In this document: in pieces, positions 33,145 through 60,329 of the stretch | Numbering within the stretch: the stretch's first letter is position 1 | Layout: every line of letters starts with the position of its first letter | Source of the DNA: a virus | IMG/VR virus record: IMGVR_UViG_3300045988_130225 | Span: 32,001 to 96,000 of that record | Length of the DNA: 64,000 nucleotides | Direction: 5' to 3' (one strand) | Notes under the pieces: model-generated | The model's database searches: none | The model's input: only the letters and a program-made list of their open reading frames with translations | What the model was told of the DNA's origin: nothing | Translations under genes and position numbers: made by a program

Positions 33145-34257
33145 TTAAACATTTAAAATTCTTAAACCCTCATTCAAAATATTAATAGAAGCATTATCAT
33201 CTCTATTCAATTTTGAACCGCAGTTAGAACAAATCCAGTATCTAATCTCAACAGGCTTTTTACCACCATTAACACCACAACAATGACAAATTTGTGAAGA
33301 AGGAAAATATCTATTAATTACAGATAATATTTTTCCATACCAAATAGATTTATAAGTCAACATTCTACGAAATTCAGACCAAGAAACATCATTCACATGT
33401 TTATTACGAACACTGGAATCTGTTTCCCTCATAGACTGTACATCTAAATCTTCAATACAAATAATATCATATTGTTTAACAATATTAGTAGTCAATTTCT
33501 GTAAAAAGTCTTTACGTTGATTAGATATATGTTTTTGTAAATTTGCGACTTTAATTCTTGCTTTATTCCAATTAGAACCACCGATTGCTTTTCTCGATAA
33601 TTCTCTTTGTAACTTAGCAAGTTTCTTTTCTGACTTTTCATAAAATCTAGGATTTTTAATCTTAATACCGTCAGATAAGATTGCAAAATCTACAATCCCT
33701 AAATCTATTCCAACATTTTTATTTGTTTTTGGATATTGTGGAAATTCTATATCAGTACAGCATAATGAACAATAGTAATGTCCGTTTGGTTCTTGTGATA
33801 TAGTAGCGTTAAGTATTCTTCCTTGCGGAATTTGCTTATCACGAACTTTTACAAAACCTAATTTTGGAAGCCTGATATGCTTACTTTCAAATCTTATATT
33901 ATTAGTAGTACAACTTGTAGTATAAGATTGATGTCTATTTTTCTTAGATTTAAAATTAGGAAAACCAGTTTGCTTTTTAAAAAGTTTTTGATATGCATTA
34001 TCTAAATTTTTCAAAGTTTTCTGTAAAGCATCTTTATCTGGTTCTTTAAGCCATTCATTTTCTTTCTTTAACTGAGTAAGCATTTTACTTGTGTCGTAAT
34101 AGTTTAAAGTTTTCTTATTTTCTTTATACTCAGTTATTCTTTTGTCTAAGAAATAATTATAAACATATCTACAGCAACCAAAAGTTTTCTGTATTAATTC
34201 TTGCTGTTTCTTATTCGGATAAATTCTATACTTAAAAGCCTTTTCCAACAATATCAC
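33145..34257 (-). CDS. tnpB: TnpB RNA-guided nuclease
   Basis: 370 aa. VGIDLGIVDF, ICIEDLDVQSM and LNRDDNASINI, plus CHCCG...CSNCG zinc finger. Confidence 0.85.
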   Translation of the reverse strand: MILLEKAFKYRIYPNKKQQELIQKTFGCCRYVYNYFLDKRITEYKENKKTLNYYDTSKMLTQLKKENEWLKEPDKDALQKTLKNLDNAYQKLFKKQTGFPNFKSKKNRHQSYTTSCTTNNIRFESKHIRLPKLGFVKVRDKQIPQGRILNATISQEPNGHYYCSLCCTDIEFPQYPKTNKNVGIDLGIVDFAILSDGIKIKNPRFYEKSEKKLAKLQRELSRKAIGGSNWNKARIKVANLQKHISNQRKDFLQKLTTNIVKQYDIICIEDLDVQSMRETDSSVRNKHVNDVSWSEFRRMLTYKSIWYGKILSVINRYFPSSQICHCCGVNGGKKPVEIRYWICSNCGSKLNRDDNASINILNEGLRILNV

Positions 34258-37636: not shown

Positions 37637-40132
37637 TCAACCATTTTCATGTAATTTCTTTAAATTTTCTATTATTAAATCACCGACAACAGCCCAACAA
37701 AAATATTTATTCTTATTCTGTCCATAACATAAGTCAAGCATAATATTAACAAGTCTATCTTTGTTTGGACAAATTTCTTCTGCTCTTGCTCTAAATTCAT
37801 GCTGTATGCTCATAACTCTTGTATTTGCTTCTTCCGTACTTAAATTTTTCTCAATCACAATTTTCTTAAACTGTTTAATACGTTTAATGTATTCTTTTTC
37901 AAGATTTTCAATATCTTCTCTTGTTTTAGGTGAACTTCTTTGAATAGGAGATTTAAGAAATTCATAATTAAAACCCTTGGATTTAAGTTCTACCACTCTG
38001 CCATCAAATTCACTTTCCACATATCGGCAAATTCGGTTCATAGTAGAACCAGAAATGTTTACTGGCATTTTTATATCGTACCATTCTAAAAACTTTTGCT
38101 GTTCTTCTGTAAGATTTTTCTTTTCTTTTAATTCATTTACTTTACAACCATAAAGCATAACACATTTAAGGTCACAATTTTTTATATAACTATCATAATC
38201 TTTTTTTAAAGAAGAATAATTATAAATAAAATAATAAGGCTTTTTATCTGTTACGATTGCTTTATCTAAAGGTGTGGTACACAGCTTTGAAACGTACCAA
38301 TACTTAGGCATTTCCTTACAAATAACTCCCTTCAGTTTGTCCAGAGTTGACTGTTGATATAACTGTCCACACAAAATACGTTTTGATAATTCTTTATATT
38401 CATTTGTATTTTCATTAAATAAAGCTAATTTATCTATTTGTGCCGATACTCTATTAGTGATTGTTCCAACTTCTGAGCCTAAGCCCATACGGTTACTTTT
38501 TCTAATATCGTTTCTTTTAACAATTCTTTTCTCTCCTTTACGTTGTACACAATCAATAGCATTTGTATATTTATAAGCACTTAAAAGTACGTTATTATTA
38601 GTAGAATATATAGAATCACTATCAAAATCGCTCCCGTTCAATGCCATACATATAGTGTCCCAATCATTTAGCACCATCATTGTATTAGAATATTTATACC
38701 ATTCTTGGCATTTTTTATCGTTATTTACTTTCATTTTCCTAATATTATTATGTGAAGTCATAGGAGAACGAAAACAAACTACCTCATTCACACCTTTATC
38801 TATCCAATATTGTGAATATATTTCGTTAGCTTTAAGTAAACCAGTAACCTCTAATCCATATATACTCTGCATTAAAGCATAAGAATCACCCATAACTATC
38901 TGATAATTCCCTTCAACTTTCAGTTTACCTATCTTAGCTTGATTAATCTTTTTCTTAATCATTTTATTGATTCTGTCAATCACATAAGGGTCATTCATCA
39001 TTCTCTCATCTAAATATAAGGCTTGTGCATAATCTTTGGTTTTAGTTTTTTCACCAACACCCAAAAATTCTTTTGTTTTCTGGTAATCACCACCAAACGC
39101 CATTTTCAGCCAATCAACAGTAGGTTTACATAATTCTACAATCTGTTCATCTGTCAATTCATAACTTTGCAAATACTGATAATTTGTTTCTCTTGTATCT
39201 TCCAACTTTTTAGGTGTTACTTTTGTAGCAGAAAACCTATAACCATTTTCATAATAACATTTGTGGTATTCTTCCCAACTAGAATAATTATCCCATAACT
39301 TAAGACTGGATTCAGTAATAATCATATCCACATCTCGAATATCTCTTTCAGTACCCCAAATATCTTTTACTTTATATCCCTTACCAACTTCCTCAGCAAA
39401 TTTTATAATCTCAAAGACATTCAACATACCTTTCATATAAGCATTTCTTAAACAAATACCACTTGGCAAATAATCAAGACCTAATTTATCAGCAACTCTT
39501 TGCATATATTCTGGTGTACAAAGATTCATGCCGTCACTGCCGTTGTTTTCTAACTCTACACCAAATTTTTCCTCAACGATAGGTTCATCTGTTTCACTAT
39601 CATCAATCCTAACCACATCACCCTTAAATTTAGTGATACAATCTCGTACAACCAATACAGAGCGTGGTTCTGGTATCTCAACGGACGCTGAATAGGTCAG
39701 AGCAATATAAGCCTCTAATTTAGCCGGTATAGCCTTGTAATCTTTCTTCCTACCACAATCAGTCCTTTTAATTAACTCTGGTAAAATATCTTCTCTCACA
39801 AACAATAAAGTATTATTTTTAAGACCACCAGTAGTTCCAACAACCCACAAAAACCTTTTACCATTTAAAATCACACCAGTTTTAGACGTAACTTTGTCAT
39901 AGTCACTCATTGAGGAAATCTCCACAGCAAGCATTAAATCCGTCATATCTTGCTTGTATTGTTTGTTACCTATAATTGTAATTAAATCTATCAGTCGAAA
40001 TGCTTGTGAATCAAATAAGTCAATCAATTCATCTAAACGAACCGCCAACTCTTTGGATAAAGTAATTTGCCAGTTGTTTATTCGGAAACGTTCAGATGAA
40101 ACTTTGAAAATCTTTCTACGTTTATTTTGCAT
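37637..40132 (-). CDS. YonO/RdRP-like single-subunit two-barrel RNA polymerase
   Basis: 831 aa. VVCFRSPMTSHNNIRKMKV...MVLNDWDTICMALNGSDFDSDSIYS matches the R.P..H....(30-40 aa)..G.D.DGD catalytic block of cellular RdRPs, QDE-1 and SPbeta YonO. The size is close to YonO. Confidence 0.55.
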   Translation of the reverse strand: MQNKRRKIFKVSSERFRINNWQITLSKELAVRLDELIDLFDSQAFRLIDLITIIGNKQYKQDMTDLMLAVEISSMSDYDKVTSKTGVILNGKRFLWVVGTTGGLKNNTLLFVREDILPELIKRTDCGRKKDYKAIPAKLEAYIALTYSASVEIPEPRSVLVVRDCITKFKGDVVRIDDSETDEPIVEEKFGVELENNGSDGMNLCTPEYMQRVADKLGLDYLPSGICLRNAYMKGMLNVFEIIKFAEEVGKGYKVKDIWGTERDIRDVDMIITESSLKLWDNYSSWEEYHKCYYENGYRFSATKVTPKKLEDTRETNYQYLQSYELTDEQIVELCKPTVDWLKMAFGGDYQKTKEFLGVGEKTKTKDYAQALYLDERMMNDPYVIDRINKMIKKKINQAKIGKLKVEGNYQIVMGDSYALMQSIYGLEVTGLLKANEIYSQYWIDKGVNEVVCFRSPMTSHNNIRKMKVNNDKKCQEWYKYSNTMMVLNDWDTICMALNGSDFDSDSIYSTNNNVLLSAYKYTNAIDCVQRKGEKRIVKRNDIRKSNRMGLGSEVGTITNRVSAQIDKLALFNENTNEYKELSKRILCGQLYQQSTLDKLKGVICKEMPKYWYVSKLCTTPLDKAIVTDKKPYYFIYNYSSLKKDYDSYIKNCDLKCVMLYGCKVNELKEKKNLTEEQQKFLEWYDIKMPVNISGSTMNRICRYVESEFDGRVVELKSKGFNYEFLKSPIQRSSPKTREDIENLEKEYIKRIKQFKKIVIEKNLSTEEANTRVMSIQHEFRARAEEICPNKDRLVNIMLDLCYGQNKNKYFCWAVVGDLIIENLKKLHENG

Positions 40133-46259: not shown

Positions 46260-46530
46260 TAATTCTACAAAGTTAAGTCAAGAAGAATTTGTTTCGTTTA
46301 GTAAAAGAATGATTCAAAGATACTATACAGAATTGTTTGGTGGCAATACAGTATCATCTGATGAAATATTTTTAGTATGGTATTGTAAGACTTTACAGAA
46401 TCATAAGGCGTTACTGGGTGTTATTGGTCGGTATGATGAATATTTTGAAGCTACCTATGACGGTGATAATAATAAAGTTTATCTGGACGTATATAAGAAA
46501 GATAAGAATATTATAGTTGAACCGATATGA
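46243..46530 (+). CDS. hypothetical protein
   Basis: ORF track 46231..46530. Start at MKKTVNN after a GAGGAAG RBS. Confidence 0.55.
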   Translation: MKKTVNNSTKLSQEEFVSFSKRMIQRYYTELFGGNTVSSDEIFLVWYCKTLQNHKALLGVIGRYDEYFEATYDGDNNKVYLDVYKKDKNIIVEPI

Positions 46531-46577
46531 ATTGAATAAAAAAGAATAAAAAGTTTTAAAATTTTTTAAAAAAGTTC

Positions 46578-46606
46578 TTGACGGATTAAGGATTATATAG
46601 TATAGT
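46578..46606 (+). promoter_or_regulatory. sigma-A-type promoter
   Basis: TTGACG, 17 nt, then TATAGT. The upstream A/T tract is homologous to the promoter at 46955. Confidence 0.6.
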
Positions 46607-46653
46607 ATGAAATATAATGAATAAAAAAATAATATTAAAGGAGATTAAAAGAA

Positions 46654-46902
46654 ATGGAGAGTTTAGCAATGAATTTAACAGATGCACAGAAGAGAGCAGT
46701 AGAGTTAAAAGATGAAATTATTAAAATTTGTGAAGAAAAGAAGTTAATTCTGGTTGCTCCTAAAGAGGGAATTGGTTTTTATGATTTAGAGTCAAAGGAA
46801 CTGGTTGCTATTTGGTCTGATAGTAAAGCCAATGAAGAAACAAAACCAGTTGATGAAGATAGCGAAGCACCAGAAGCACCGGAAATTCCAGAACAGGAAT
46901 AA
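46654..46902 (+). CDS. hypothetical acidic protein
   Basis: 82 aa with an AAGGAG RBS. Confidence 0.55.
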   Translation: MESLAMNLTDAQKRAVELKDEIIKICEEKKLILVAPKEGIGFYDLESKELVAIWSDSKANEETKPVDEDSEAPEAPEIPEQE

Positions 46903-48921: not shown

Positions 48922-50169
48922 TAAGCCAAAAACCCCCATTAGCTTTAGCTGATGGGAAGAATAGTGGAGAACAATTAACTGAGAGTGAGGTGATTATAGA
49001 TGTTGGTAGCATACAAATACAGATTGTATCCGAATAAAGAACAACAAGAATATTTTGCTAAATGTTTTGGGTGTGTACGATTTATCTATAATCGTATGCT
49101 TTCAGATAAGATTGACTATTATAAAGAAACAAAGAAAAAGCTGAATAATACACCTGCTCAGTACAAGAAAAAGTTTGAGTGGCTAAAAGAAGTAGATTCA
49201 CTTGCATTAGCAAATGCTCAAATGAATTTGCAGACAGCCTATAACAATTTTTTCAAACGTCCAGAAGTGGGTTTTCCAAAATTCAAAAGCAAGAAGAATA
49301 ATCACTTCTCTTATACTACAAATAATCAGGGAGGAAACATTTATGTGACAGACCGATACATAAAACTCCCTAAGATTGGACTTGTTAGAGTTCGGAAACA
49401 TAGAGATTTTGAAGGATTAATTAAGTCTGTTACTATTTCTAAAAGTCCGTCTGGTAAATACTTTGTTTCAGTATTAGTAGACCAAAAAGATAAAGAAAAA
49501 TTAATTCCAAACAATAACCAAATTGGAATTGATTTAGGTATTAAAGAATTTTGTATTACTTCTGATGAAGAGATGATTCAAAATCCAAAGTTTCTTAGAA
49601 AGTCTGAAAAGAAATTAAGAAAATTACAAAAGGATTTATCTCGTTGTCAAAAAGAAAGTAAAAATAGAGAAAAATGCAGAATTAAAGTCGCAAGACAACA
49701 TGAAAAGATTGCAAATCAACGTAAAGATTTTCTACATAAGTTATCTAGGCGATTTATTGATGAAAACCAAATCATTGCATTAGAAACTTTGAAAATTAAA
49801 AATATGATGAGTAATCATAAATTAGCAAAATCAATAGCAGATGTATCATGGTCTGAATTTGTAAGACAATTAGAGTATAAGGCTCAGTGGTATGGTAGAG
49901 AAATCGTAAGGATTGATACTTGGTATCCATCAAGTCAGATATGCTCTAATTGTGGTCACAAAGACAGAAGAAAGCCATTATCAGTAAGAGAATGGATCTG
50001 TCCTAATTGTGGTACACATCATGAAAGGGATATAAATGCAGCTATAAATATTCTTAAAGAAGGTTTGAGAATTAAAACGGCAGGAACTGTCGAGATAGTC
50101 TAAGTAAACTTGTGCGGTTACGCATATTGATTAGAAAATCCAATGAGTTTTAACTCATGGGTAGTTCAG
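48922..50169 (+). mobile_element. tnpA-less IS200/IS605-type TnpB element 3
   Basis: Matching 22-nt subterminal hairpins at 48935-48956 (CCCATTAGCTTTAGCTGATGGG) and 50140-50161 (CCAATGAGTTTTAACTCATGGG). The left flank TAGAACAG resembles the element end TAGTTCAG. Confidence 0.6.
49000..50103 (+). CDS. tnpB: TnpB RNA-guided nuclease
   Basis: 367 aa. [21 protein letters not shown] and [11 protein letters not shown], plus CSNCGH...CPNCGT. Confidence 0.85.
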
Positions 50170-50215: not shown

Positions 50216-50557
50216 AATTGTCAGCATTGTGATGCTTATATCAACATTCCAATAAACTGGTTCACAATGTATTTCTATGAGGACTTAACAAGATGTTGGA
50301 TTTTTTGGCATATGAAAATGAATCATGATTTTCAGAGTACAGAAGATAATTGGTTTACTTTTGTATTAAGATTTATTGGGTTAATGTTAAAATTTGATTT
50401 AGCTTGTGTGTTGATTTCAGTGAAGATTGTGCTGACACCATTTTTAATGTTGGATAAATTTTTATTCTTTGACGCTAGAAGAGATATGGATTTTGAATAT
50501 TTGGATAGTGATGAAGTTGAGGAAGATGAAGATAAAAGTGAGGATAAGGAGAATTAA
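50180..50557 (+). CDS. hypothetical membrane protein with acidic tail
   Basis: 125 aa. The N-terminus MSRCRGKLMSRC reflects the 24-bp duplication, so the alternative start 50204 is equally good. Confidence 0.5.
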   Translation: MSRCRGKLMSRCNCQHCDAYINIPINWFTMYFYEDLTRCWIFWHMKMNHDFQSTEDNWFTFVLRFIGLMLKFDLACVLISVKIVLTPFLMLDKFLFFDARRDMDFEYLDSDEVEEDEDKSEDKEN

Positions 50558-50563
50558 ATAAAA

Positions 50564-52157
50564 ATGAAAAACAGTAAAAGGATTGTATCGAAGATACAGA
50601 AGAATGTTCAAAAAGAAATAGTGTTAGTATCAAAAAATAGAGAGAGGAAATGGCAACTCGTTAATTTTTGTGAATTTGACAAATATGCAACAAAATCATA
50701 CTGTGCCATTCATGGTGTTGATGAATCATTGAATCTTGGTGATATTACAAAGGTTGATGAAACAAAGCTTAAACCATTTAATATGATTTGTGGAGGTAGC
50801 CCGTGTCAAGATTTTTCTATAGCAGGTAAGCAAAAGGGTTCTGTTTGGACTTGCAAAGAATGTGGACATGAATATAATCCATTGACGGTACATTGGCTAA
50901 AAAGAGATAAGTGTCCATGCTGTGGAAGTAACAATATTGAAAAAAACTCGTTCATCTCTTTTAGTAGAGTATTTAAGAGTAATAAGAGCGAACAAACCCA
51001 ATTTTGGTTTGTATGAAAATGTTAAAAATATTGTTGGAAAACAATTTAAAGAAACTACTTTTAAATTATTTACTGATGAATTGAAAGAATATGATTATAA
51101 TGTGTATTGGAAAGTTTTAAATGCAAAAAATTACGGTATTCCGCAGAATAGAGAACGTGTTTATTTAATTTTTATCAAGAAAGACTTGGATAATGGCAAG
51201 TTTAAGTTTCCAGAGCCATTTGATAATGGTGTTCGATTGAAAGATATGCTTGAAGATAAAGTAGATGAAAAGTATTATATTTCAAAAGATAAAATTGAAA
51301 AATTTTTAAAGAATTTTAATTATGATTTTAGTAAAAATCAGTTAGGCAGTATTGAAAATAATAATTCTCAAACCAATAGAGTATATAATATAGATAAAGA
51401 ATCACCAACTTTAAACACTTGTTCTGGTGGTAATCATCAACCAAAAGTTTTATTAGGAGTTGATAAAACTTTTAATAACCCAAAAATTATAGATGAAGCT
51501 AATTGTTTATGTGCAAGATATGATTGTGGTTTTACTAAAAGAGTTTCAGAAGGCACAGCAGTTTTAGAAAGTATTCCAATTTTAGTTTCAAAGAAAGGCG
51601 AAAAGTTTGATAAAAAGATTAATGAAGCAAATACGTTATTAGCCCGTGATTATAAAGGGTTTGGAAATCAAACTATGAACGCAGTTATTCAAATCCCGCA
51701 AGCAACTAAAAAAGGCTATATTGAATGTGAGCAAAATGGTGTTGCAGATTTATCATATCCAACTTCTACTACAAGAAGAGGGCGTGTACAAGAAAACGGA
51801 AATATTTCACCAACTCTTACAGCATCAGAAACAAATATTTGTAAGATAGAATCATTGATTAGAATTAGAAAATTAACACCAAAAGAATGTTTTAGACTTA
51901 TGGGTTTTTCTGATAATGATTTTGAAAAAGCTGAGAAAACGGTAAGTAATTCACAATTATATAAACAAGCAGGTAACTCTATTGTTGTAGATGTGCTTTA
52001 TTATATATTAGTTGAATTATATAAAGCAATGCCATATCTGTTCGATGATTTGAAACTAAGTAGTTTTTTCTCTGGAATTGGAGCGTTTGAGATAGCATTG
52101 GATAGATTATATAAAGGAATAAATTCTGGAAATTTTATAAGTCTACAAGTAGATTAA
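50564..52157 (+). CDS. DNA (cytosine-5) methyltransferase, multi-TRD, interrupted by a +1 frameshift at an A7 tract
   Basis: GGSPCQDFS (motif IV, 50793-50819), ENV (51015-51023), QNRERV, RKLTPKECFRLMGF (IX) and QAGNSIVV (X). Frames switch at A7 50940-50946. Four T.L-type target-recognition loops. FFSGIGAFE (motif I) lies at 52065-52091, after motif X. Confidence 0.75.
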
Positions 52158-52399
52158 GTTCTGCTTGTGGTAAAAATAAATTTATATATTGTTTAAAATA
52201 TCAACGTACTGAATATGGTAAAAAGATTAGAAAAGATTATGAAAATGGCAAAATAAAAGAAAAACGTTGTAATATGAGAAATTATACAATAAGAGAAGAT
52301 GAATGTTGTAATACTTTAACAACAGTACAGAAAGATAATTATATTATAATAAAAAGAGGTGAAGCAAATGAAAGTAAAGAAAGTAAAAGGAATATCTGA
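52115..52399 (+). pseudogene. remnant of a second C5-methyltransferase (TRD fragment, no start codon)
   Basis: An open frame without ATG reads ...YQRTEYGKKIRKDYENGKIKEKRCNMRNYTIREDECCNTLTTVQKDNYIII, typical of phage Dcm target-recognition regions. No motif IX/X follows. Confidence 0.45.
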
Positions 52400-52694
52400 A
52401 ATGGGATTTTTTGAAATGAGTTTTGATTTTAAATTTGGAGATAAAGTAAAACCTGTAAACCTCTGTCAATATACTCTTGCTATCGACAGTGAAGTATATT
52501 TGCAAAGTATAAGCAACATGAAAATAATCAATGCTAAAAGTCTTATCGCACTTAGCCAGTTTCCTTATTTCCCCACTGAAACTGTAAGACTTATTATTAA
52601 AGATAACAAGTCAAGTGAAGCAAACAAGGCTTTAGAATATTTTCTAAGTCAGAACACATTTATTGTCAGAAAGCGAGTTGTTCAACATGATTGA
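52359..52694 (+). CDS. HPr/Crh-like fold protein lacking the catalytic His
   Basis: IINAKSLIALSQF....TVRLIIKDNKSSEANKALEYFL aligns with HPr [13 protein letters not shown]...ITISASGADENDALNALEETM. The GIHARPA site is GISEMGF. Confidence 0.3.
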   Translation: MKQMKVKKVKGISEMGFFEMSFDFKFGDKVKPVNLCQYTLAIDSEVYLQSISNMKIINAKSLIALSQFPYFPTETVRLIIKDNKSSEANKALEYFLSQNTFIVRKRVVQHD

Positions 52695-53118
52695 TAAATT
52701 AAGAGAAGCAAAAAAAGGTAAACTTACCAAAGAAGAAAACGCAATTAAACAGGTTTCAGCATGTATAAAGGCATGGGAAAATAATGAACCTGCGACACTT
52801 AGCACTGAAACAATGAAAACAATCCTTAAAACTTTAAAAGAGATAAAAGATTTTCGTGACGTTGGCAACGTAAAAACTATAAAAGAATTAAAAAAACTCA
52901 GCCTTAAACGTCAACCTAAAAATCTTAATAAAAAATATTGCGACTACAAAGTTGACGATGAAGAAATCCATTCTTTCTATGGCATCTGCCCCAACTGCGA
53001 GCAACCATTAAATTTCTACTGGCATCAGAAATATTGCGGCAACTGTGGACAAGCCCTTATCTGGCGAAACTTAAAGTCAGTAATAAGCAAGAAAGACCTT
53101 GACAAAATCATAAAGTGA
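52687..53118 (+). CDS. zinc-ribbon protein
   Basis: ORF track 52663..53118. ATG 52687 overlaps the upstream stop. Motif CPNCEQP...CGNCGQ. Confidence 0.55.
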   Translation: MIDKLREAKKGKLTKEENAIKQVSACIKAWENNEPATLSTETMKTILKTLKEIKDFRDVGNVKTIKELKKLSLKRQPKNLNKKYCDYKVDDEEIHSFYGICPNCEQPLNFYWHQKYCGNCGQALIWRNLKSVISKKDLDKIIK

Positions 53119-53134
53119 CACGTTCACATTTTTA

Positions 53135-53176
53135 AACCCCTTAGTAACACAAAGTACAAGGGGTTCTTTTTTATTT
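53135..53176 (+). terminator. rho-independent terminator
   Basis: AACCCCTT/AAGGGGTT 8-bp stem followed by CTTTTTTATTTT. Confidence 0.7.
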
Positions 53177-53590
53177 TCAACCAAGTTATCACATTCAGAA
53201 CAAAATTCCCCTATATCTACTTTCTACGGACTGTTACCACCCTAAATCAGAATAAATCCCCCTAACTCAGAGCACGAGATTTCGCCCTATATTGCAAAAC
53301 ACTACATGAAGCCCAAGGGAGTAATTATTTGCAATGTCCTATAAATTGGACACCTAAAACACTAATGAAAATCATTTAAGACTTGAAGCATTGCAATTCG
53401 CCCACTCGAAAACGCCTACGCAAAAACCATTACTTTTCGACTATAGGGGGTCAAGGCACTTTTCGCCAATAGTTCTTTTTAGAACCATTTTTCCGTTATT
53501 CATAAATTTTAATAACGAACAGTGAAATGACAAAACACCTGTCTTTACAACTGACAAGACAACTGACAAGACATTTCTTAATTTTCCACT
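53177..53590 (-). ncRNA. candidate leftward non-coding transcript
   Basis: Lies downstream of a minus-strand copy of the conserved early promoter -10 block. It has no ORF >20 aa by hand scan and runs into the hairpin at 53135-53176. Confidence 0.3.
53547..53573. repeat. tandem 12-nt repeat ACAACTGACAAG x2 (+ACA)
   Basis: Read directly from the sequence. Confidence 0.9.
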
Positions 53591-53598
53591 ATGGTTAT

Positions 53599-53627
53599 GA
53601 TATACCACTCTCCCCTAAATTTAACTA
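53599..53627 (-). promoter_or_regulatory. early-family promoter copy pointing left
   Basis: The minus strand reads GTGGTATATCATAACCATAG, against GTGGTATATTATAACCAT(A/G) at 57999, 60443 and 60812. The -35 is weak (TAGTTA). Confidence 0.45.
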
Positions 53628-53817
53628 CCTGTGGTCACTCTTATATACCGTTACAACTCATTTAAACGCCCCTAGAAACGATTTTAATAGATAAGACGAT
53701 TAAGTTATCATACGCAGACTAAAACGCCCACATTTGCCTTGTACTGTTTCATATAAAAAGTGACACCTTATCATGCTCCTAAAACCTCTACAGAAATAAT
53801 AGTCAAAATTTAAACCA

Positions 53818-53831
53818 GTATACCGGTATAC
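53818..53831. repeat. perfect 14-bp palindrome GTATACCGGTATAC
   Basis: Self-reverse-complementary. Confidence 0.95.
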
Positions 53832-53878
53832 GGCGAATGACCCCCTTGTTCCCCAGTATACAATTACCCCCCTCTATC

Positions 53879-53894
53879 AGATAATATATTATCT
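53879..53894. repeat. perfect 16-bp palindrome AGATAATATATTATCT
   Basis: Self-reverse-complementary. Confidence 0.95.
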
Positions 53895-54120
53895 ATTGTA
53901 AAGAGTAGATGACTAAGAGATAGAACTACAAGAATTATAAGAATAGATAAGAGATAAGAGGATTGAGAACTGGATAATATGTTGGTTATTACATACTCGT
54001 AAATGTTGCAAAATCCCTATTCTGTGTTATCACCTACACCTATAAAACCACTAGGCATAAAGAGCAAAATGATACACACATTTTCGTCATATATATCTTA
54101 AATACTCTTAGACGATTTAC

Positions 54121-54515
54121 TGTGTGCTATTGTTGTGAGAAATGATATGAAAAGTATAGGTGGTTAAGGTGGTGTGAAAATGGTCTGGGATAGGTATGGG
54201 GAATTTGGTTATCGTGCGTGTGCGTTATATATAATTATATATAGTGGGAGTTAATAAGTAGGAAACGGTGAAGTGATGAGAGATGAAAAACTAAGGATTG
54301 ATATGAACATAAGGATTTAGGAATATAGAGGGCAGAAGGATATATAAGGATATATGATATAAGGTGAGAGTGGGCGTGAGTGGGTGCGGAGATAATGATG
54401 ATAGTTGGGATAGAGCAATAGCAATGGGGGATAGGGGGTAACAGGAGCAATAGATAGAGAGATAATTGAAATACTATGAATATTGGGTGAATATTGAGTT
54501 GTGGGAGTGTGCGGT
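54121..54515. other. C-depleted (G/A/T) arm
   Basis: By hand count there are about 18 C in about 395 nt on the plus strand, while G is abundant. GGGATAG/GGATAT motifs recur. Confidence 0.85.
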
Positions 54516-54699
54516 GTATCAGCTATTCCGAGTATGCGAAAATCGTATATACGAATTGTCTGAAAATACCCCGGTTATACGTGACTAACAGAATGAGTGT
54601 TCGACTAGCCCAGAGGAGGGGGCGATATACTCTGCCTGCATAGGTTCGGAACGTCAAAAAACATGGCTATAATAAATCATTATAGACACGTTTTGCATG

Positions 54700-54717
54700 T
54701 TATCAATATATTGATAA
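54700..54717. repeat. perfect 18-bp palindrome TTATCAATATATTGATAA
   Basis: Self-reverse-complementary. It lies in the compositionally balanced core between the two skewed arms. Confidence 0.95.
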
Positions 54718-54861
54718 TACTATACGTTCAAAACTAATGGTTTTTATTGATACTTGAACACTTTTAACGTGATTGATATATTGGAAGTATTATATTATGT
54801 TAAAAAAATGACGTAATAAGAAGGTACTATATATGTGATACCGCATACCATTAGCTAAGTT

Positions 54862-55342
54862 ATCTTCCTTTATGTTTCTTCTTTCCCCTCTTCTCTTCAT
54901 ACGCTCTCAATAGTCCGCATGAAACATTGTATATACTTATTATATCTATATTATTCCATCATCCTCTTTCTCCATCTTCCCATATCCTACTATACCATCT
55001 TCCATTCTTTCACCTATCAACCCACTTTCCATCCGTTCATATATCCCACTTATACCAGATCCATTTCAATTCCATTTCCATTTCCACCTGTCATCATTCC
55101 CCACACTTCCACATCTTACAATTAATCCCATGTCTTATCATATCTCATATCACATCTTCTGTTATCTCATACCACCGCACAACATACCCATACCATCTTA
55201 CATAGTAACAATAACCACATACATAGTATTCAATACTACTTGTAATCTTACTCATATCCCATATCATGTTTTACAATACTATCTCATATCCCTATTAATC
55301 CACTATGTTAATATGTTACCCATAAACCCATTATCCATATAG
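54862..55342. other. G-depleted (C/A/T) arm
   Basis: By hand count there are about 18 G in about 480 nt on the plus strand, while C is abundant. ATATCCC/CCATCTTCC motifs recur. Confidence 0.85.
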
Positions 55343-55423
55343 GTTAATATATAAATCATAAACCCTATAACATACTATGTTATTGAATTATAACATAATT
55401 ATATGAGTTGTTGTTATTGATAT

Positions 55424-55509
55424 CATTTTAGGCAATACTTTTATCGCAACGGCTCAATTTTAGTCAATACTTAAAATTTGTACGAAAACTATTGGCATTT
55501 TAGCAATAA
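55424..55509 (+). repeat. three iteron-like direct repeats ATTTTAG(N)CAATA(C/A)T
   Basis: Copies at 55424-55438, 55456-55470 and 55496-55509. Confidence 0.7.
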
Positions 55510-56196
55510 TGATACATACTAAAACGTTTAATATATATATTATATATGGCACGAAAATGTATGTGTTATTGTTTGAAAAATTGCTACAATTTTCATTATG
55601 TTAGCACAACTCCAATTTTTTGGTTTACATAAGGTGTGAATATTCAGACGCAATTTGAATTTTAGAATAATTTAGCTGTACTTATTAATAAGTGGCGTTT
55701 TTAATAAGTGTATCTAATAATAAATGGCAAGCGATCCAATGCCGGATTTATGTAAATGCCGTTTAAAGCCCTTAGAAGCCGTTTTAAAGCGTTTTAGGGC
55801 TTTCAAAGCATATTTTATCATTAAATGTTTTTCCAATCGAAACTATGTTATGTGGTATTGAAAACTACGTTATTATCTGACAATTTGGCACTCATTAGTG
55901 GTAAGTGCTAATAAGTAAACATATGTGAATTATTGCCATATATGAATAGTAAATAAATGTTTATTAATGGGCTTCTAACATAAAAGCAAAAACACCTATA
56001 TAAGCAATGGGGCTTGTATGTATGCTTACTTATATATATGTATATATGCATGGTGTTTTATATGGGACTTGCATATGCTTTTATATAGTAGTCTGCTTTT
56101 TTTGTAAATCCCTTATATATAGGAAGTAATACAATCGAATAGATGTTTTTATGAAAAATGTATAAAAAAATATATGTTTTTTGGTAGTTTTTACCA

Positions 56197-56225
56197 TTGA
56201 GTATATATATACTTTTTGCTATACT
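56197..56225 (+). promoter_or_regulatory. sigma-A-type promoter
   Basis: TTGAGT, 17 nt, then TATACT. Confidence 0.5.
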
Positions 56226-56345
56226 TGCATTATCAAATGAATCAAATCATTTCCATATCGGAAATATTAAGAATATACGTTCTGTATATTCCAAAAAAAA
56301 TAAAATTAAACATTAAATCATACATATAAAAGGAGAAGAAAAACA

Positions 56346-56639
56346 ATGAAAAAAATATTAAAAGCAAGTACAAAGAGTGGCGCGCGTTGGATCGTATCCG
56401 CAAAAAAAGAAGAAGGCTATAGACTTTCCGATATTTATGAAAGCTATAGCATAGGCAAAGAAAACGCCTATAACGATTGCTTCAACAAATATGTTTCTGC
56501 TGAAACTTCAAAAAATTTCCGTATTTTTTCTCATAATACTTTTGGTTTTTCTGTAGCTTGGGAGGAAACCATAGAAAATGAAGAATATTTACATATTGAA
56601 ACACCACAAAACACATATATTGTGGCTTTAAATCAATAA
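56346..56639 (+). CDS. hypothetical early protein
   Basis: 97 aa with an AAGGAG RBS. Confidence 0.6.
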   Translation: MKKILKASTKSGARWIVSAKKEEGYRLSDIYESYSIGKENAYNDCFNKYVSAETSKNFRIFSHNTFGFSVAWEETIENEEYLHIETPQNTYIVALNQ

Positions 56640-56681
56640 ATAGTTTAATTGTCTGAAAAATAAAACAGGAGGATTTATATT

Positions 56682-56948
56682 ATGAGATTGTCAAAAGAAG
56701 AAAGATTAAATTATCAAGAGAAAGAACCAATTTCCGTTTATGGTATATCAAATTTTGGCGGTATAGCCATTATTGATATAATTCATGATGTGGACGAATA
56801 TATTGTGTGGTATGATTCCCAGATTGAATCTTCTGAAAAGCGTAAAATTCATGTTTCAAAGATTTATTATTCTGAAAATGACTGTTATTTTAAACCATAC
56901 GGAAGCATGTATATCAAGTTGTCGGAATGTTCACGCATTCTGGCATAA
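56682..56948 (+). CDS. hypothetical early protein
   Basis: 88 aa with an AGGAGG RBS. Confidence 0.6.
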   Translation: MRLSKEERLNYQEKEPISVYGISNFGGIAIIDIIHDVDEYIVWYDSQIESSEKRKIHVSKIYYSENDCYFKPYGSMYIKLSECSRILA

Positions 56949-56972
56949 AAATATAAAAAAGGAGAAAACAAA

Positions 56973-57125
56973 ATGAAAGAACTGAAAAATATCATAGAAG
57001 CAATTAATAATTCTGAAAATTGGGCTGATTGCCTAGAAGAATGTGAAAAATTGTGCGAACTTGCTGGACTGTCCGAAGAATGGAACAAGGCAAGCGGAGA
57101 AAGGGAAATTTGCCCCAAAGGGTAA
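56973..57125 (+). CDS. possible 50-aa protein
   Basis: Hand-found ORF MKELKNIIEAINNSENWADCLEECEKL... with an AAGGAG RBS. Confidence 0.4.
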   Translation: MKELKNIIEAINNSENWADCLEECEKLCELAGLSEEWNKASGEREICPKG

Positions 57126-57249
57126 TATCGTTTAATTTGAAAAGTCAATTTGAAAATGAAAAGTTTTTTCTTTTTTATTTTTTCTTTTCCTTTATAATAA
57201 GGAAGTCTTTCATTTCTTTTATTTTTTTAATCTTTTTATATTATATCTA

Positions 57250-57278
57250 TTGATTTTTCTTTTCTTTAATGGTATAGT
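57250..57278 (+). promoter_or_regulatory. early-family promoter
   Basis: TTGATT, 17 nt, then TGgTATAGT, followed by GCAACCATAG. Confidence 0.6.
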
Positions 57279-57336
57279 GCAACCATAGTAACAAAGTAAT
57301 AAACAGTATAAATAAGTAAATAGGAGGATTTTAAAA

Positions 57337-57813
57337 ATGAGATTAAGAGAAGGAAAGCTTATATCAGAATGGGAAGATGAATATGAAAACAAAGCGTTAA
57401 TTGAAGAAGTGGAAATCAAACCACATAAAGAAGCTAAACTGGAAAAGGTATATAGACTTTCTTGTTATGCGGAGTATGATGATAATTTTTGCTATCATAT
57501 TTCAATTTTTGATTCCGCAGAAAGTGCGGAAAATCAGCTTAAAGAGTTTAGTTGCGGTAGTTTTAGAAATATTTTGGAAATCATGGTAGAAAATATTCTT
57601 GCAGGTTTTGACGAAAAATTTAAGAACTCAATTTATGAAAGTCGAAAATCTATGAAAAATTTTTTAAAAAAATACAATCGCACTGATAAAGATGAATGTA
57701 TTGATAGAATTAAAAAAATTGTAAACGATTTAATTAATCGTTATGAAATAAGTTATGAAGAAGCAATGATATTATTTGATTATATTTGCGGAAAAGAAAA
57801 AACAAGATATTAA
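57337..57813 (+). CDS. hypothetical early protein
   Basis: 158 aa with an AGGAGG RBS. Confidence 0.6.
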   Translation: MRLREGKLISEWEDEYENKALIEEVEIKPHKEAKLEKVYRLSCYAEYDDNFCYHISIFDSAESAENQLKEFSCGSFRNILEIMVENILAGFDEKFKNSIYESRKSMKNFLKKYNRTDKDECIDRIKKIVNDLINRYEISYEEAMILFDYICGKEKTRY

Positions 57814-59105: not shown

Positions 59106-60329
59106 ATGTATACAATCGCAAATGCACAGTGGTCATTCAAAAAAATCGCACAGGAGATTAAAAAAGGAAACATTGACTTTAAATGCGGAGGCGTTCAAAG
59201 AGGGGACGTTTGGGATAATGCAAGACGTTCTTTACTTATCCAGTCTGGATTAAAAGGAGATATTATTCCTTGTCTTTATATCCGCAGAAATGGAGAAAAT
59301 AAAGATAAATACGAAATGCGTGACGGCAGACAGCGTTGCACAACTTTAGCAAAATTCATTAATGATGGTTTTGTAACTTCTGGTATTCCAGAATATGAAG
59401 ATGGGGATAAATTAGATTATCGTATTTGCAGGAATGGTGAAATGGTATCAGCAAACGGTATTAGTTTTGAAAGTCTTTCAGATGATGAAAAAATGGATTT
59501 TCTTACAAGAAATATTACAGTTTATTATATTGACGGTGCAACGGATGCAGAAGCCGATATGATTTTTTTGAAACTTAACAACGGAAAAGCATTGACTACA
59601 GCAGAAAGAAACAGAGCAGAAGCAAAATCAAGAAGTGAAATCATTGATATTGCTAACCATAATATTTTCAAGTTGATGTTTAGTGAAAAAACGTTAGATA
59701 ATAACGCTTTTGATACCGTTGTAAAATCTTATATCATGTTAAATAATGATAATCCGTCATTGCTTAACAAAGACGTTAAACCGTTGATGAAATCTATTGA
59801 TATTACAGAAGAAGACAAAAAACAGCTTACAGCAGTATTTGATTACATTCTGGAAGTTTATAATCTTTTGGAAACAAAGAAAGTTAAGAAAAGAATCATT
59901 GGAAAGACTAGCTTTTTATCTTTAATTCCAGTTGCAGAACAAGCATTAAATGATGGAAAGATAGCAGAAGAGTTTGCAAGCTTTCTGGATAAATTTTTCT
60001 CTGGAAAGACAACAAAGGAACCAACAATCAGTAAGACTTATAACGATAACTTCTTCGATTCTTCCGCAAGTCGTATGAAGATTAGATTACGCCACAATGC
60101 ATTAATGAATGAATATGAAAAAATGTTCAATGGTGAAACTGAAAATATATATAGCGAAAATGCAGAGGATTTACAGGAGGAGATTGACGAAGCGGAAACA
60201 GTAGAGGATTATATTAGTATTGACGAATTAAGCAAGCCAGATACAGATGAAGAAGTAACAGTAACAGAAGATTCTACACCAGAAGAACATATAGAGGAAC
60301 AGCAGACAGAAGATATAGAAGAATTTTAA
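59106..60329 (+). CDS. DUF262 (ParB/GmrSD N-terminal nuclease-like) protein with acidic C-terminal tail
   Basis: MRDGRQRCTTL matches the DGQQR(L/I)T(T/S)L signature of DUF262. The last ~70 aa are E/D-rich. Confidence 0.65.
   Translation: MYTIANAQWSFKKIAQEIKKGNIDFKCGGVQRGDVWDNARRSLLIQSGLKGDIIPCLYIRRNGENKDKYEMRDGRQRCTTLAKFINDGFVTSGIPEYEDGDKLDYRICRNGEMVSANGISFESLSDDEKMDFLTRNITVYYIDGATDAEADMIFLKLNNGKALTTAERNRAEAKSRSEIIDIANHNIFKLMFSEKTLDNNAFDTVVKSYIMLNNDNPSLLNKDVKPLMKSIDITEEDKKQLTAVFDYILEVYNLLETKKVKKRIIGKTSFLSLIPVAEQALNDGKIAEEFASFLDKFFSGKTTKEPTISKTYNDNFFDSSASRMKIRLRHNALMNEYEKMFNGETENIYSENAEDLQEEIDEAETVEDYISIDELSKPDTDEEVTVTEDSTPEEHIEEQQTEDIEEF

Follow-up and report, generated by a model that had tools for sequence, protein, structure and literature searches.

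Mirrored C-poor and G-poor arms around a conserved core mark a candidate packaging locus in PMBT24-like siphophages

Introduction

By analogy, the closest precedent for the locus described here is the packaging region of phage ICP1, in which the pac termini mapped with PhageTerm fall in a 1.3-kb region without open reading frames (ORFs), between gp1 and gp2, beside an inferred rolling-circle origin (PMC7145576, PMC11417361). Our subject is a noncoding arm-core-arm element in a 64,000-nt stretch of phage DNA (hereafter the window; IMG/VR record IMGVR_UViG_3300045988_130225, positions 32,001 to 96,000, with all coordinates below given as window positions), in which one arm is nearly devoid of C, the other is nearly devoid of G, and a core of ordinary composition lies between them. 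Like the phage studied here, ICP1 is large and virulent; its termini are located in an extended ORF-less stretch distant from every recognized small terminase gene, and its authors tie this stretch to replication. ICP1 shows that adjacency to terminase genes is not obligatory for a pac site. Nucleotides 1 to 235 of the ICP1 genome (HQ641347) contain 5 G and 67 C, with an absolutely G-free run of 133 nt (99–231). The differences are that ICP1 has two termini (431, plus strand; 891, minus strand) where PMBT24, the mapped member of the window family, has one, that the G-free tract of ICP1 is one-sided and stands in another geometry relative to the cuts, and that the two share no sequence or protein relatedness, ICP1 being a myovirus of a proteobacterium. 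Positions 350 to 600 of ICP1 are moderately G-rich (72 G, 35 C) and positions 641 to 760 are G-poor again, all 82 ICP1-like records share the 1–760 region at ≥95% identity, and the annotated ORF1 (160–267, minus strand), which lies inside the G-free tract, may be spurious.

A flank-cleavage-flank logic like that of the arm-core-arm unit is known from the pacL-pacC-pacR region of SPP1 and from pac of P1, in both of which a central cleavage region has recognition DNA on either side, the P1 flanks being opposed hexamer clusters. Those sites span ~160 to 270 bp, lie in or beside terminase genes, and are built of discrete boxes or hexamers, with Dam sites in P1, whereas the flanks described here measure 340 to 675 bp each, contain no discrete box, and are defined by the exclusion of one base. 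T7 offers a further likeness: a G-poor, C-rich tract of ~180 bp (8% G, skew of −0.64; NC_001604, 160–340) lies just inside its 160-bp left terminal repeat, and the polarity of this tract away from the end equals the core-then-G-free-strand polarity of PMBT24 if the packaging direction proposed below holds. However, the T7 tract is an array of CCTAAAG heptamers, is not mirrored across the repeat (skew of −0.27 to +0.07; region ahead of the right terminal repeat, 39400–39777), and belongs to a genome with fixed ends and direct terminal repeats rather than to a headful packager; flanking short-repeat arrays of the T7 type were not found in the arms, which contain no repeat family, tandem unit, or periodicity.

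Two further classes of element invite comparison on the grounds of strand asymmetry. ColE1 RNA II, T4 oriF and oriG, the mitochondrial conserved sequence blocks (CSB), and the immunoglobulin switch regions have a G-rich nontemplate strand and RNA:DNA hybrids that are more stable than the duplex. The arms likewise represent the extreme of the window in hybrid stability for inward transcription. R-loop zones of this kind are one-sided and have a defined upstream promoter, whereas the arms form two convergent zones for which no conserved promoter was found and whose G-rich strand is also A-rich and near C-free. In eukaryotic telomeres the G-rich strand ends 3′ and, if the element were cut at the core, the G-rich, C-free strand would similarly end 3′ at the break on both products. 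The arms differ from telomeres in that they have no tandem unit, in that canonical G-quadruplexes are absent from the lineage to which the window belongs, and in that they are tracts internal to a circularly permuted genome.

For large virulent phages that infect gut Firmicutes, hardly any packaging sites or origins are known. The arm-core-arm architecture appears to be undescribed: a full-text literature search returned no description of mirrored three-letter arms, and the paper that reports PMBT24 is silent on them. Kielviridae has been proposed as the family name for ~100-kb virulent siphophages of the PMBT24/CB457P2 type (PMC11035940).

Results

Composition of the arms and the core

The window is part of a phage genome, one strand of which carries large, mostly unannotated ORFs, including one of 1554 aa; we take this block of large ORFs, on the minus strand, to be the structural genes. 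The opposite strand encodes nucleotide-metabolism, methylase, and small early-type genes together with two tRNAs. Sequence comparison indicates that the phage is a ~100-kb virulent siphophage and kin of PMBT24 and CB457P2, which infect Enterocloster bolteae. Positions 53119 to 56345 contain no credible ORF of ≥40 aa, which agrees with the 3.2-kb ORF-free region delineated in a first-pass annotation of the window. ORFs of 68 to 92 aa in the right arm were rejected as coding sequences since indels between close relatives in this stretch have lengths not divisible by three; these artefacts arise because a G-free strand permits TAA stops only. A search of positions 52000 to 57500, on both strands, with the covariance models of Rfam 15 gave no match at E ≤ 1.

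Plus-strand positions 54121 to 54515 contain 133 A, 17 C, 135 G, and 110 T (395 nt), and positions 54862 to 55342 contain 134 A, 148 C, 19 G, and 180 T (481 nt), in close agreement with the ~18 C and ~18 G counted by hand in the first-pass annotation; the intervening 346 bp (54516–54861; 120 A, 52 C, 65 G, 109 T) are of ordinary composition, as had also been stated there for a core of ~345 bp. The arm and core borders used from here on, which enclose a 347-bp core, were set by likelihood-ratio segmentation. A sliding-window check, as the annotation had suggested, gives GC skew peaks of +0.77 and then −0.85 across the arms (200-nt windows) and places the C and G minima of the entire 64 kb within them: the lowest-C 400-nt window, at 54108, is the left arm with 18 C (window mean of 68), and the lowest-G 400-nt window, at 54930, is the right arm with 12 G (window mean of 57). 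The longest absolutely G-free run in the right arm is 105 nt (54930–55034). In 300-nt windows across the 64 kb, the arms are the only stretches in which the absolute skew lies well above 0.6; the only other stretches at ~+0.62, 46456–46828 and 50285–50679, overlap predicted plus-strand ORFs and are far milder than the arms.

The G-rich, C-poor strand points 5′ to 3′ toward the core on both sides, being the plus strand on the left and the minus strand on the right. This mirror symmetry is one of composition and not, as the first-pass annotation had already recognized, a sequence-level inverted repeat: sequence matches between the arms are short and imperfect only, exemplified by one of 27 nt at 74%.

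Conservation of the plan and selection on composition

A BLASTN search with the 3.2-kb noncoding region matched only CB457P2, CB473P2, PMBT24, and CB457P1, over ~140 nt (55748–55884). Further homologues were sought with a 21-nt conserved motif from block A of the core, CGAATTGTCTGAAARTACCCC, and with looser versions of it, a search that yielded six contigs from IMG/VR, 16 true ones from metagenomes, and a single phage contig that had been binned in a metagenome-assembled genome (MAG). Altogether, 25 true homologues of the region were recovered (isolates, IMG/VR, metagenomes, and one MAG), and both arms are complete in 21 loci, the window itself counted. Two of the 18 metagenome matches were discarded as chance occurrences in coding DNA of ~50% G+C, as were six matches in the genome collection, where the flanks of the motif differ and arms are absent. 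No prophage or host copy was found in the genome collection, the sole true match there being the MAG-binned phage contig. This 85.8-kb contig (CAAGHO010000049.1, from a MAG labeled "Bacilli bacterium") carries a complete arm-core-arm unit and is evidently a phage genome. A 97-aa ORF that flanks the element was also tried as an anchor to distant relatives and abandoned, as ORFs of equal length in CB457P2 and PMBT24 are nonhomologous (18–20% identity); flanking genes therefore differ between lineages.

The arm-core-arm plan is seen in 25 of the 25 homologues, as far as each sequence extends, with C-poor arms of 342 to 553 nt that contain 9 to 29 C and G-poor arms of 312 to 675 nt that contain 9 to 36 G. 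CB457P2 has a syntenic 3-kb gene desert in which the skew reaches +0.93 and then −0.82, and PMBT24, once the end of its record is joined to the start, gives +0.95 and then −0.98. Two of the ways in which the first-pass annotation had envisaged that its interpretation might fail, namely an absence of skewed arms from related phages and an assembly chimera, are thus disposed of, the latter by 26 independent assemblies and cultured isolates. Nor does the unit have the character of a mobile element with terminal inverted repeats, as it occupies the same long noncoding region in every relative, and the 58-nt repeat that brackets it is confined to one lineage.

The sequences of the arms turn over freely within this plan. 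BLASTN separates the left arms into six or more families that cannot be aligned with one another, and does the same for the right arms; the left arm of the window is 96 to 98% identical among the close relatives that make up the window group but is unalignable to the arms of L018, L021/L024, CB457P2, PMBT24, and L017. With a gap-tolerant global aligner, arm identity between lineages equals that of shuffled arms. The contig L030 has a left arm that is 94 to 99% identical to most of the window group (91% to L008) and a right arm that is essentially unrelated, and CB457P1 and PMBT24 share the core and the left arm at 85% identity. In the CB457P2, PMBT24, and L017 lineages, absolutely C-free runs of 175 to 238 nt end ~9 nt short of the core, and absolutely G-free runs of 151 to 213 nt extend from the core edge; in the first two of these lineages, arm purity is highest beside the core and falls off outward.

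The polymorphism spectrum is asymmetric in the same sense. Polymorphic columns of the right arm show C↔T changes at 127 of 323 pyrimidine sites as opposed to A↔G changes at 24 of 165 purine sites, and the left arm is the mirror of this, with A↔G at 103 of 274 sites and C↔T at 15 of 123, from which it follows that changes creating the forbidden base are depleted ~3-fold. Across lineages, the C-free strand is composed of 29 to 45% G, 30 to 41% A, and 22 to 30% T, where the window overall has ~14 to 17% G and 35% T, and arm G+C is 36 to 51% as compared to a genome mean of ~31%. G is thus enriched ~2-fold over the genome while T shows no enrichment, a pattern that cannot result from a simple deamination-driven loss of C. 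Arms that cannot be aligned yet share one plan, together with the depletion of the forbidden base, argue for selection on composition rather than on sequence, in keeping with the earlier suggestion of selection and not drift; these comparisons indicate that the strand composition of the arms is under selection.

Within the window group, the left arm and most of the remaining 3.2-kb region are ~90 to 100% identical. The main exceptions are a variable module in the core, where 54722–54771 is only 35% conserved amid flanking noncoding DNA that is mostly ~90 to 100% conserved, and the inner right arm (54872–55221), which is 53 to 81% identical among close relatives, differs mostly by C↔T changes and small indels, and is still G-poor. 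The fast-evolving zone starts at the predicted cut described below and extends rightward, onto the side that would be left unpackaged from that cut.

Coincidence with the packaging terminus of PMBT24

The terminus of PMBT24 was mapped with a TruSeq library, which gave a single significant PhageTerm peak, located on the reverse strand; PMBT24 was classed as headful (pac) and circularly permuted, and its authors placed the start of the record at the PhageTerm pac site (PMC11035940). The published map corresponds to the GenBank record, as judged from ORF numbering. The junction of record end and start (CTCAAAATATG/AGATACATTCACCC, or in longer form GCGAACCCTCAAAATATG/AGATACATTCACCCAC) lies 2 nt ahead of a G-free run of 215 nt and 312 bp past the end of a C-poor arm whose final 218 nt are C-free. 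By our rough estimate, the chance that a terminus lies within a few nucleotides of one of four compositional boundaries in a 100-kb genome is ~4 × 10−4. Among the candidate roles listed in the first-pass annotation, that of a physical genome end or packaging region is alone in having empirical support, from this pac start at the boundary of core and G-free arm in PMBT24. Alignment of the PMBT24 sequence AAAATATG/AGATAC to the window predicts a cut at 54835/54836, TATATATG/TGATACC, with an uncertainty of ~10 nt, and homology suggests that the window phage is cut at the same place as PMBT24.

The promoter coordinates in Table S3 of the PMBT24 study relate to the record as P = 99953 − R, which fits what we take to be the PhageTerm reorganization of a genome with a reverse-strand peak at P = 99952. 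The reverse-peak rule of PhageTerm would imply that packaging proceeds leftward from the cut, taking in the core and subsequently the left arm, and that the right arm lies on the side not packaged. The terminator coordinates in Table S4 of the same supplement map as 99593 − R, 360 nt off the promoters.

A pac site is expected to contain a unique conserved recognition sequence, and the locus has one in block A, which is near-invariant in all lineages and occurs once in the 64-kb window; the ~58-nt repeat that brackets the arms is also found only at this locus within the window. The usual, though not obligatory, position of pac in or beside the small terminase gene is not seen here, as the ORFs that flank the element encode a zinc-ribbon protein, a C5-methylase, and small proteins of unknown function, with no terminase domain nearby. 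Contig ends were considered as possible physical ends and rejected: four metagenome contigs break within ~200 nt of block A, none of them at the predicted cut.

Anatomy of the core and of the surrounding noncoding region

The features of the locus are collected in Table 1. Block A contains the near-palindrome TCGTATATACGA, which includes CGTATATACG (54544–54553) and is followed by ATTGTCTGAAAATACCCC. Block B has a consensus fold with compensatory UA↔CG changes in three of seven sequences, and folding of either strand in three lineages gives a minimum free energy (MFE) of −7.4 to −14 kcal/mol, with z-scores between −2.6 and −4.6; in outline, the predicted structure resembles an intrinsic terminator that works in both directions or a dimer-binding site. 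The module that follows is lineage specific. In the closest relatives, four copies of TTGCA(C/T) take the place of the four TTGATA hexamers; copies of either kind sit in the A+T-rich half of the core, and the cores of CB457P2 and PMBT24 are without comparable repeats. All four palindromes given in the first-pass annotation (TTATCAATATATTGATAA, CGTATATACG, GTATACCGGTATAC, and AGATAATATATTATCT) are present where it placed them, although the one that it highlighted, the perfect 18-bp palindrome TTATCAATATATTGATAA at 54700–54717, is specific to the window and unconserved. The best σ70-like match of the region, TTGATA-16-TATAAT (54706→54679, minus strand, 11 of 12 positions), overlaps the lineage-specific module, and a rightward promoter-like match in the core reads TTGAAC-17-TATATT with a preceding TG.

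Table 1. Coordinates of features in and around the arm-core-arm element
Feature	Positions	Strand	Description
Terminator-like hairpin	53135–53177	+	AACCCCTT, 15-nt loop, AAGGGGTT, then T-run; read from sequence
Palindrome GTATACCGGTATAC	53818–53831		Perfect, 14 bp; surrounding noncoding DNA 85–92% conserved in window group
Palindrome AGATAATATATTATCT	53879–53894		Perfect, 16 bp
Bracketing inverted repeat, left copy	54068–54125	+	~58 nt, imperfect; stops where left arm starts
Left arm	54122–54516	+	17 C in 395 nt; 34% G, 34% A, 28% T; effectively A/G/T
Core	54517–54863		Normal composition; 311–347 bp in all complete loci
Core block A	54520–54572	+	CAGCTA ... AAATCGTATATACGAATTGTCTGAAAATACCCC; most conserved sequence of the element
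Core block B	54656–54694		A-tract, CATGGCTATAAT, loop, ATTATAGACACG, T-tract; conserved imperfect palindrome/hairpin
Lineage-specific module	54700–54780		Four TTGATA hexamers, including the 18-bp palindrome
Core block C	54803–54849		Closes core; contains position homologous to PMBT24 pac terminus
Right arm	54864–55336	+	18 G in 473 nt; effectively A/C/T
Degenerate palindrome copy ATAGTCCGCATGAAACAT	54910–54927		Corresponds to 18-bp palindrome ATGTTTCACGTGAAACAT, conserved right of core in almost every lineage
Bracketing inverted repeat, right copy	55514–55570	−	~58 nt
Conserved noncoding block	55748–55884	+	Hairpin AAAGCCCT...AGGGCTTT, then TTTTCCAATCGAAACTATG...TTATCTGACAAT; 3′ of arms

Six ACGT tetramers (~1 expected) and 16 G/C-containing palindromic 4-mers (9.5 expected) occur in 54579–54814 of the window core. 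This ACGT richness is in part common to relatives in the window group, and a methylation-regulated, P1-like core, suggested by the six ACGT sites and a phage C5-methylase, was rejected because the cores of CB457P2 and PMBT24 contain no ACGT.

On the left, the noncoding region is bordered by the hairpin at the end of the upstream operon (ORF 52663–53118), which an automated scan passed over because its loop exceeds 8 nt; PMBT24 has an analogous terminator ~380 nt ahead of its left arm. The sequence around AGATAATATATTATCT (53872–53971) is 100% conserved in L006, L007, and L008. Both copies of the bracketing repeat are kept in these three relatives and in L004 and are absent from the CB457P2 and PMBT24 lineages. 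The palindrome ATGTTTCACGTGAAACAT is perfect in L006, L007, L008, L021, L025, and L029, where it lies +57 to +63 nt into the right arm, and in the CB457P2 and PMBT24 groups its position is +352 to +370 nt, with one copy per locus. The conserved block 3′ of the arms is 73 to 82% identical by BLASTN to CB457P2, CB473P2, PMBT24, and CB457P1 and, besides block A, is the only part of the noncoding region that BLASTN detects in Enterocloster phages.

Variants of a CTGACAA/AATTGTCTGA motif recur in the noncoding region at 53540–53575, 54553–54566, and 55874–55888, as a tandem pair of CAACTGACAAGA near 53548, as the block A copy, and as an inverted TTATCTGACAATTT near 55875; the cores of CB457P2 and PMBT24 contain two CTGACAA-type copies as an inverted pair ~30 bp apart. 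The plus strand of 53100–53880 is moderately C-rich (skew of −0.3 to −0.4) and 90 to 98% conserved in the window group, and PMBT24 has a similar weak C-rich zone 1.2 to 1.8 kb left of its cut.

Structural and sequence properties of the arms

When 200-nt segments of the window are ranked by structure on each strand, the three least structured come from the G-free strands of the arms, with MFE values of −0.004 to −0.035 kcal/mol/nt as compared to window means of −0.15 and −0.17. The energy of the RNA:DNA hybrid minus that of the duplex, estimated for inward-reading RNA with nearest-neighbor parameters, ranks 1 to 3 among 639 windows on both arms. The polarity of the G-rich strand dictates that inward transcripts would be G-rich and C-free and outward transcripts would be G-less and, furthermore, that after a break in the core the 3′-ending strand of both products is the G-rich one. 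A Rho utilization (rut) site is defined by RNA that is C-rich, G-poor, and unstructured, and among the possible transcripts only the outward-reading RNA would have this character.

The oppositely oriented GGGATA(G/T) and ATATCCC motifs to which the first-pass annotation drew attention are present and modestly enriched, with GGGATA occurring 30 times in 14 independent arms where base composition predicts 7.9 copies and a first-order Markov model 11.6. On the G strand, GGGATA, GATAGG, and TAGGGA exceed expectation 2.6- to 3.8-fold, in opposite orientations on the two sides, and GATAGG is present in all 14 arms. A discrete binding-site array was nevertheless rejected, as no k-mer is shared strongly over the first-order Markov expectation in three lineages, and position-specific information beyond the GATA core was not found in the 14 arms. 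Helical phasing or bending was rejected as well, since power spectra of GG/CC, WW, AA/TT, S, and TA in eight arms contain no consistent period. The earlier suggestion of a protein array thus does not hold in the form of a repeated, phased site. Canonical G-quadruplexes are present only in the Enterocloster lineages and absent from arms of the window group, and so were dismissed as a conserved property.

Restriction-site avoidance fared no better. The first-pass annotation had pointed to freedom from G/C-bearing palindromic sites, but G/C-containing palindromic 4-mers, of which the arms have 0 and 4, average only 5.6 per 400 nt over the window; many 400-nt windows contain three or fewer, the whole genome being poor in them. 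Conserved σ70 promoters were also rejected: counts are near or modestly above shuffle expectation, and the core promoters of the window are not conserved. Consistent with this, PhagePromoter places no promoter within ~1 kb of the PMBT24 element, its first predictions lying ~1 kb away. The promoter search was for σ70-like sequences, a class that does not extend to promoters of phage-encoded sigma factors.

Discussion

Taken together, the terminus of PMBT24 and the homology of the core make it probable that the locus contains a packaging start or a physical genome end. Our favored reading in full, that of a genome-maturation locus (pac or physical end) with strand-polar arms that act at the level of single strands, we consider evenly poised between right and wrong; that the arms act through single-stranded DNA ends or recombination we favor slightly over other roles for them but consider unlikely in itself. 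In this proposal, the unit would be the cis-acting maturation locus of ~100-kb virulent Lachnospiraceae siphophages. The ~330-bp core would provide specific recognition through block A, hairpin B, the four-hexamer lineage-specific module, and block C, and terminase would make the series-initiating (pac) cut at the right core edge, at the position that homology predicts. The arms would be composition-coded, strand-polar flanks rather than sequence-specific sites and would come into play once the DNA beside the break or core turns single-stranded. Each strand of each arm is without G or without C and hence forms no G-C hairpins, and 5′-to-3′ resection from a break in the core would expose, on the side undergoing processing, a G-rich 3′ tail free of hairpins. 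Tails of this kind would suit loading of the phage RecA and strand invasion, which in turn may serve recombination-dependent replication, circularization, or rescue of the unpackaged end of the concatemer. Among the recombination genes of the PMBT24 family are those for RecA, Gam, a RecJ-like exonuclease, and a protein resembling exonuclease V (PMC11035940).

A number of considerations weigh against this proposal. The terminus comes from one relative, PMBT24, by one method, and from the peak of one strand; the ~10-nt uncertainty of the predicted cut arises because block C differs between the PMBT24 and window lineages, and a leftward, core-first packaging direction depends on our understanding of how PhageTerm treats a reverse-strand peak. 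No terminase gene adjoins the locus, and no TerS has been identified in the family. The large terminase of PMBT24 has low or no significant similarity to those of related phages (PMC11035940). The retention of the core and left arm in CB457P1 argues that the conserved blocks are not specific to a terminase. A single cut at the right core edge would put the left arm 312 to 347 bp from the end, so that mirror symmetry is not obviously needed; the symmetry would be explained if a second, weak terminus lay at the left edge of the core, the core then being a short terminal repeat. Headful phages, moreover, cut at pac only once per series, and a role at ends would therefore concern a minority of molecules. 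The arms contain no repeated site past the GGGATA/GATAGG excess and no phasing, so that nothing positively marks them as protein arrays.

The principal alternative, which we regard as unlikely although nearly as likely as G-rich 3′ tails for RecA, is an initiator-independent, R-loop-primed origin of replication. Inward transcripts through both arms would prime replication, RNA polymerase would halt at hairpin B, and the hybrids would prime leading strands that cross the core both ways, as at ColE1 or T4 oriF/oriG; a packaging end nearby could be secondary, as has been proposed for ICP1, and such an origin is compatible with an adjacent pac. Hybrid stability, for which both arms are estimated to occupy the top ranks in the window, is what this model predicts, and the purine-rich strand is the RNA-like strand for inward transcription. 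Rho binds C-rich RNA, and inward C-free transcripts would be poor substrates for it. Hairpin B, with its A-tract, T-tract, and compensatory changes, is conserved, and two convergent primers would account naturally for the mirror symmetry. The coding strand of genes in the window has mostly positive GC skew, and the left arm has the same sign as the plus-strand genes that flank it. The functions assigned in PMBT24 include DnaB, primase, and Pol III alpha without an origin-binding initiator. In the window group, the inward-facing inverted repeat exactly brackets the arms and could be a promoter pair, and the four-hexamer core module looks like iterons. That repeat, however, is absent from the CB457P2 and PMBT24 lineages, no conserved promoter was found outside the arms, σ70-like matches in the region are at or near shuffle expectation and unconserved between lineages, and PhagePromoter offers no candidate near the PMBT24 element. 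The arms are also more G+C-rich than the genome, unlike an unwinding element, terminators close the upstream operons ahead of the left arm, and the canonical G-quadruplex motifs that are frequent at R-loop zones are missing from the window group.

Somewhat less credible still is the idea that the arms are oversized landing pads for TerS, that is, giant versions of the SPP1 pacL-pacC-pacR or P1 pac arms, in which a protein reads either a degenerate oriented GGGATA-like motif or the groove and shape of a purine/pyrimidine-biased duplex, mirrored on the two sides. The tripartite layout with a cut at the core edge fits this idea, as does the excess of GGGATA, GATAGG, and TAGGGA in opposed orientations, and an oriented double-strand binder would yield exactly the mirrored strand composition. 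Such a binder, on the other hand, gives no cause for near-absolute exclusion of a base over 150 to 240 nt, and the 400 to 675 bp per side are far over known TerS footprints; the arms have no position-specific information past the GATA core, no k-mer strongly enriched over the first-order Markov model in three lineages, and no consistent periodicity of 10 to 11 bp or otherwise.

It is improbable that the element works by outward transcription from promoters in the core, with the two G-less, unstructured RNAs serving as rut tracts or as decoys for an RNA-binding host factor such as Rho, and strong Rho loading insulating the flanks from transcription that leaves the core. These RNAs would be the least-structured segments of the window and would have the rut character noted above, and the window core contains near-consensus leftward and rightward promoters, but these promoters are conserved neither in the closest relatives nor in other lineages, a complete lack of G across 200 nt is more than natural rut sites require, and the physical terminus at the boundary is left unaccounted for. 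Least probable is that the arms are functionless and their skew a neutral by-product of cytosine deamination on a strand made single-stranded repeatedly by a recurrent break: although the 3′ tail strand after resection from a core break is the C-free one on both sides, purity in two lineages drops off away from the core, and evolution of the inner right arm is rapid and mostly by transitions, deamination predicts a T-rich strand with unchanged G (and loss of A if adenine is also deaminated), which is not the composition observed, arm G+C lies above the genome mean, the conservation of the left arm in the window group implies constraint, and absolute purity over 150 to 240 nt in several lineages needs selection.

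Under the favored reading or its principal alternative, the arms may belong to a kind of cis-element not seen before, although we think this less likely than not: the signal would be the alphabet of each strand, selected while the sequence turns over freely. Such a signal would possibly set the behavior of single-stranded DNA or RNA at a genome end or origin, as hairpin-free 3′ tails or as Rho-poor R-loop primers. By analogy, the G-poor tracts at the ICP1 pac region and in the T7 terminal repeat are a hint that many packaging termini may carry a weaker form of it. If the arms do function as composition-coded strands, selection acts on strand alphabet over hundreds of bases, a signal that is invisible to motif- and alignment-based annotation. 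The element is in any case a 1.2-kb landmark that can be recognized from base composition alone and that coincides with the only mapped terminus of the family. It could be used to orient and start genome records of this phage family, as a candidate pac cassette for Lachnospiraceae transduction or engineering vectors, and as a testbed for the effects of single-strand structure on end processing, recombination-dependent replication, and R-loop priming.

Other genes in the window

Upstream of the element, a C-5 cytosine DNA methylase (PF00145) is split across two overlapping plus-strand ORFs, 50564–51016 and 50922–52157, the first of which covers profile positions 23 to 83 and has a zinc-ribbon-like tail, and the second of which covers positions 84 to 251; the split may reflect a frameshift, a programmed shift, or a disrupted gene. 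Three genes of the TnpB/IS605 OrfB type are found at 28096–29289 (minus strand), 33145–34257 (minus strand), and 49000–50103 (plus strand). Two of these have HTH_OrfB_IS605, OrfB_IS605, and Cas12f1-like TNB domains, and the third matches only PHROG transposase family 506; the presumed structural block on the minus strand encloses two of these genes. Finally, the plus-strand ORF 59106–60329, 3′ of the element, encodes a GmrSD_N/DUF262 domain of the modification-dependent endonuclease family, and a DUF262 gene is likewise found in PMBT24, in the corresponding direction relative to the arms.

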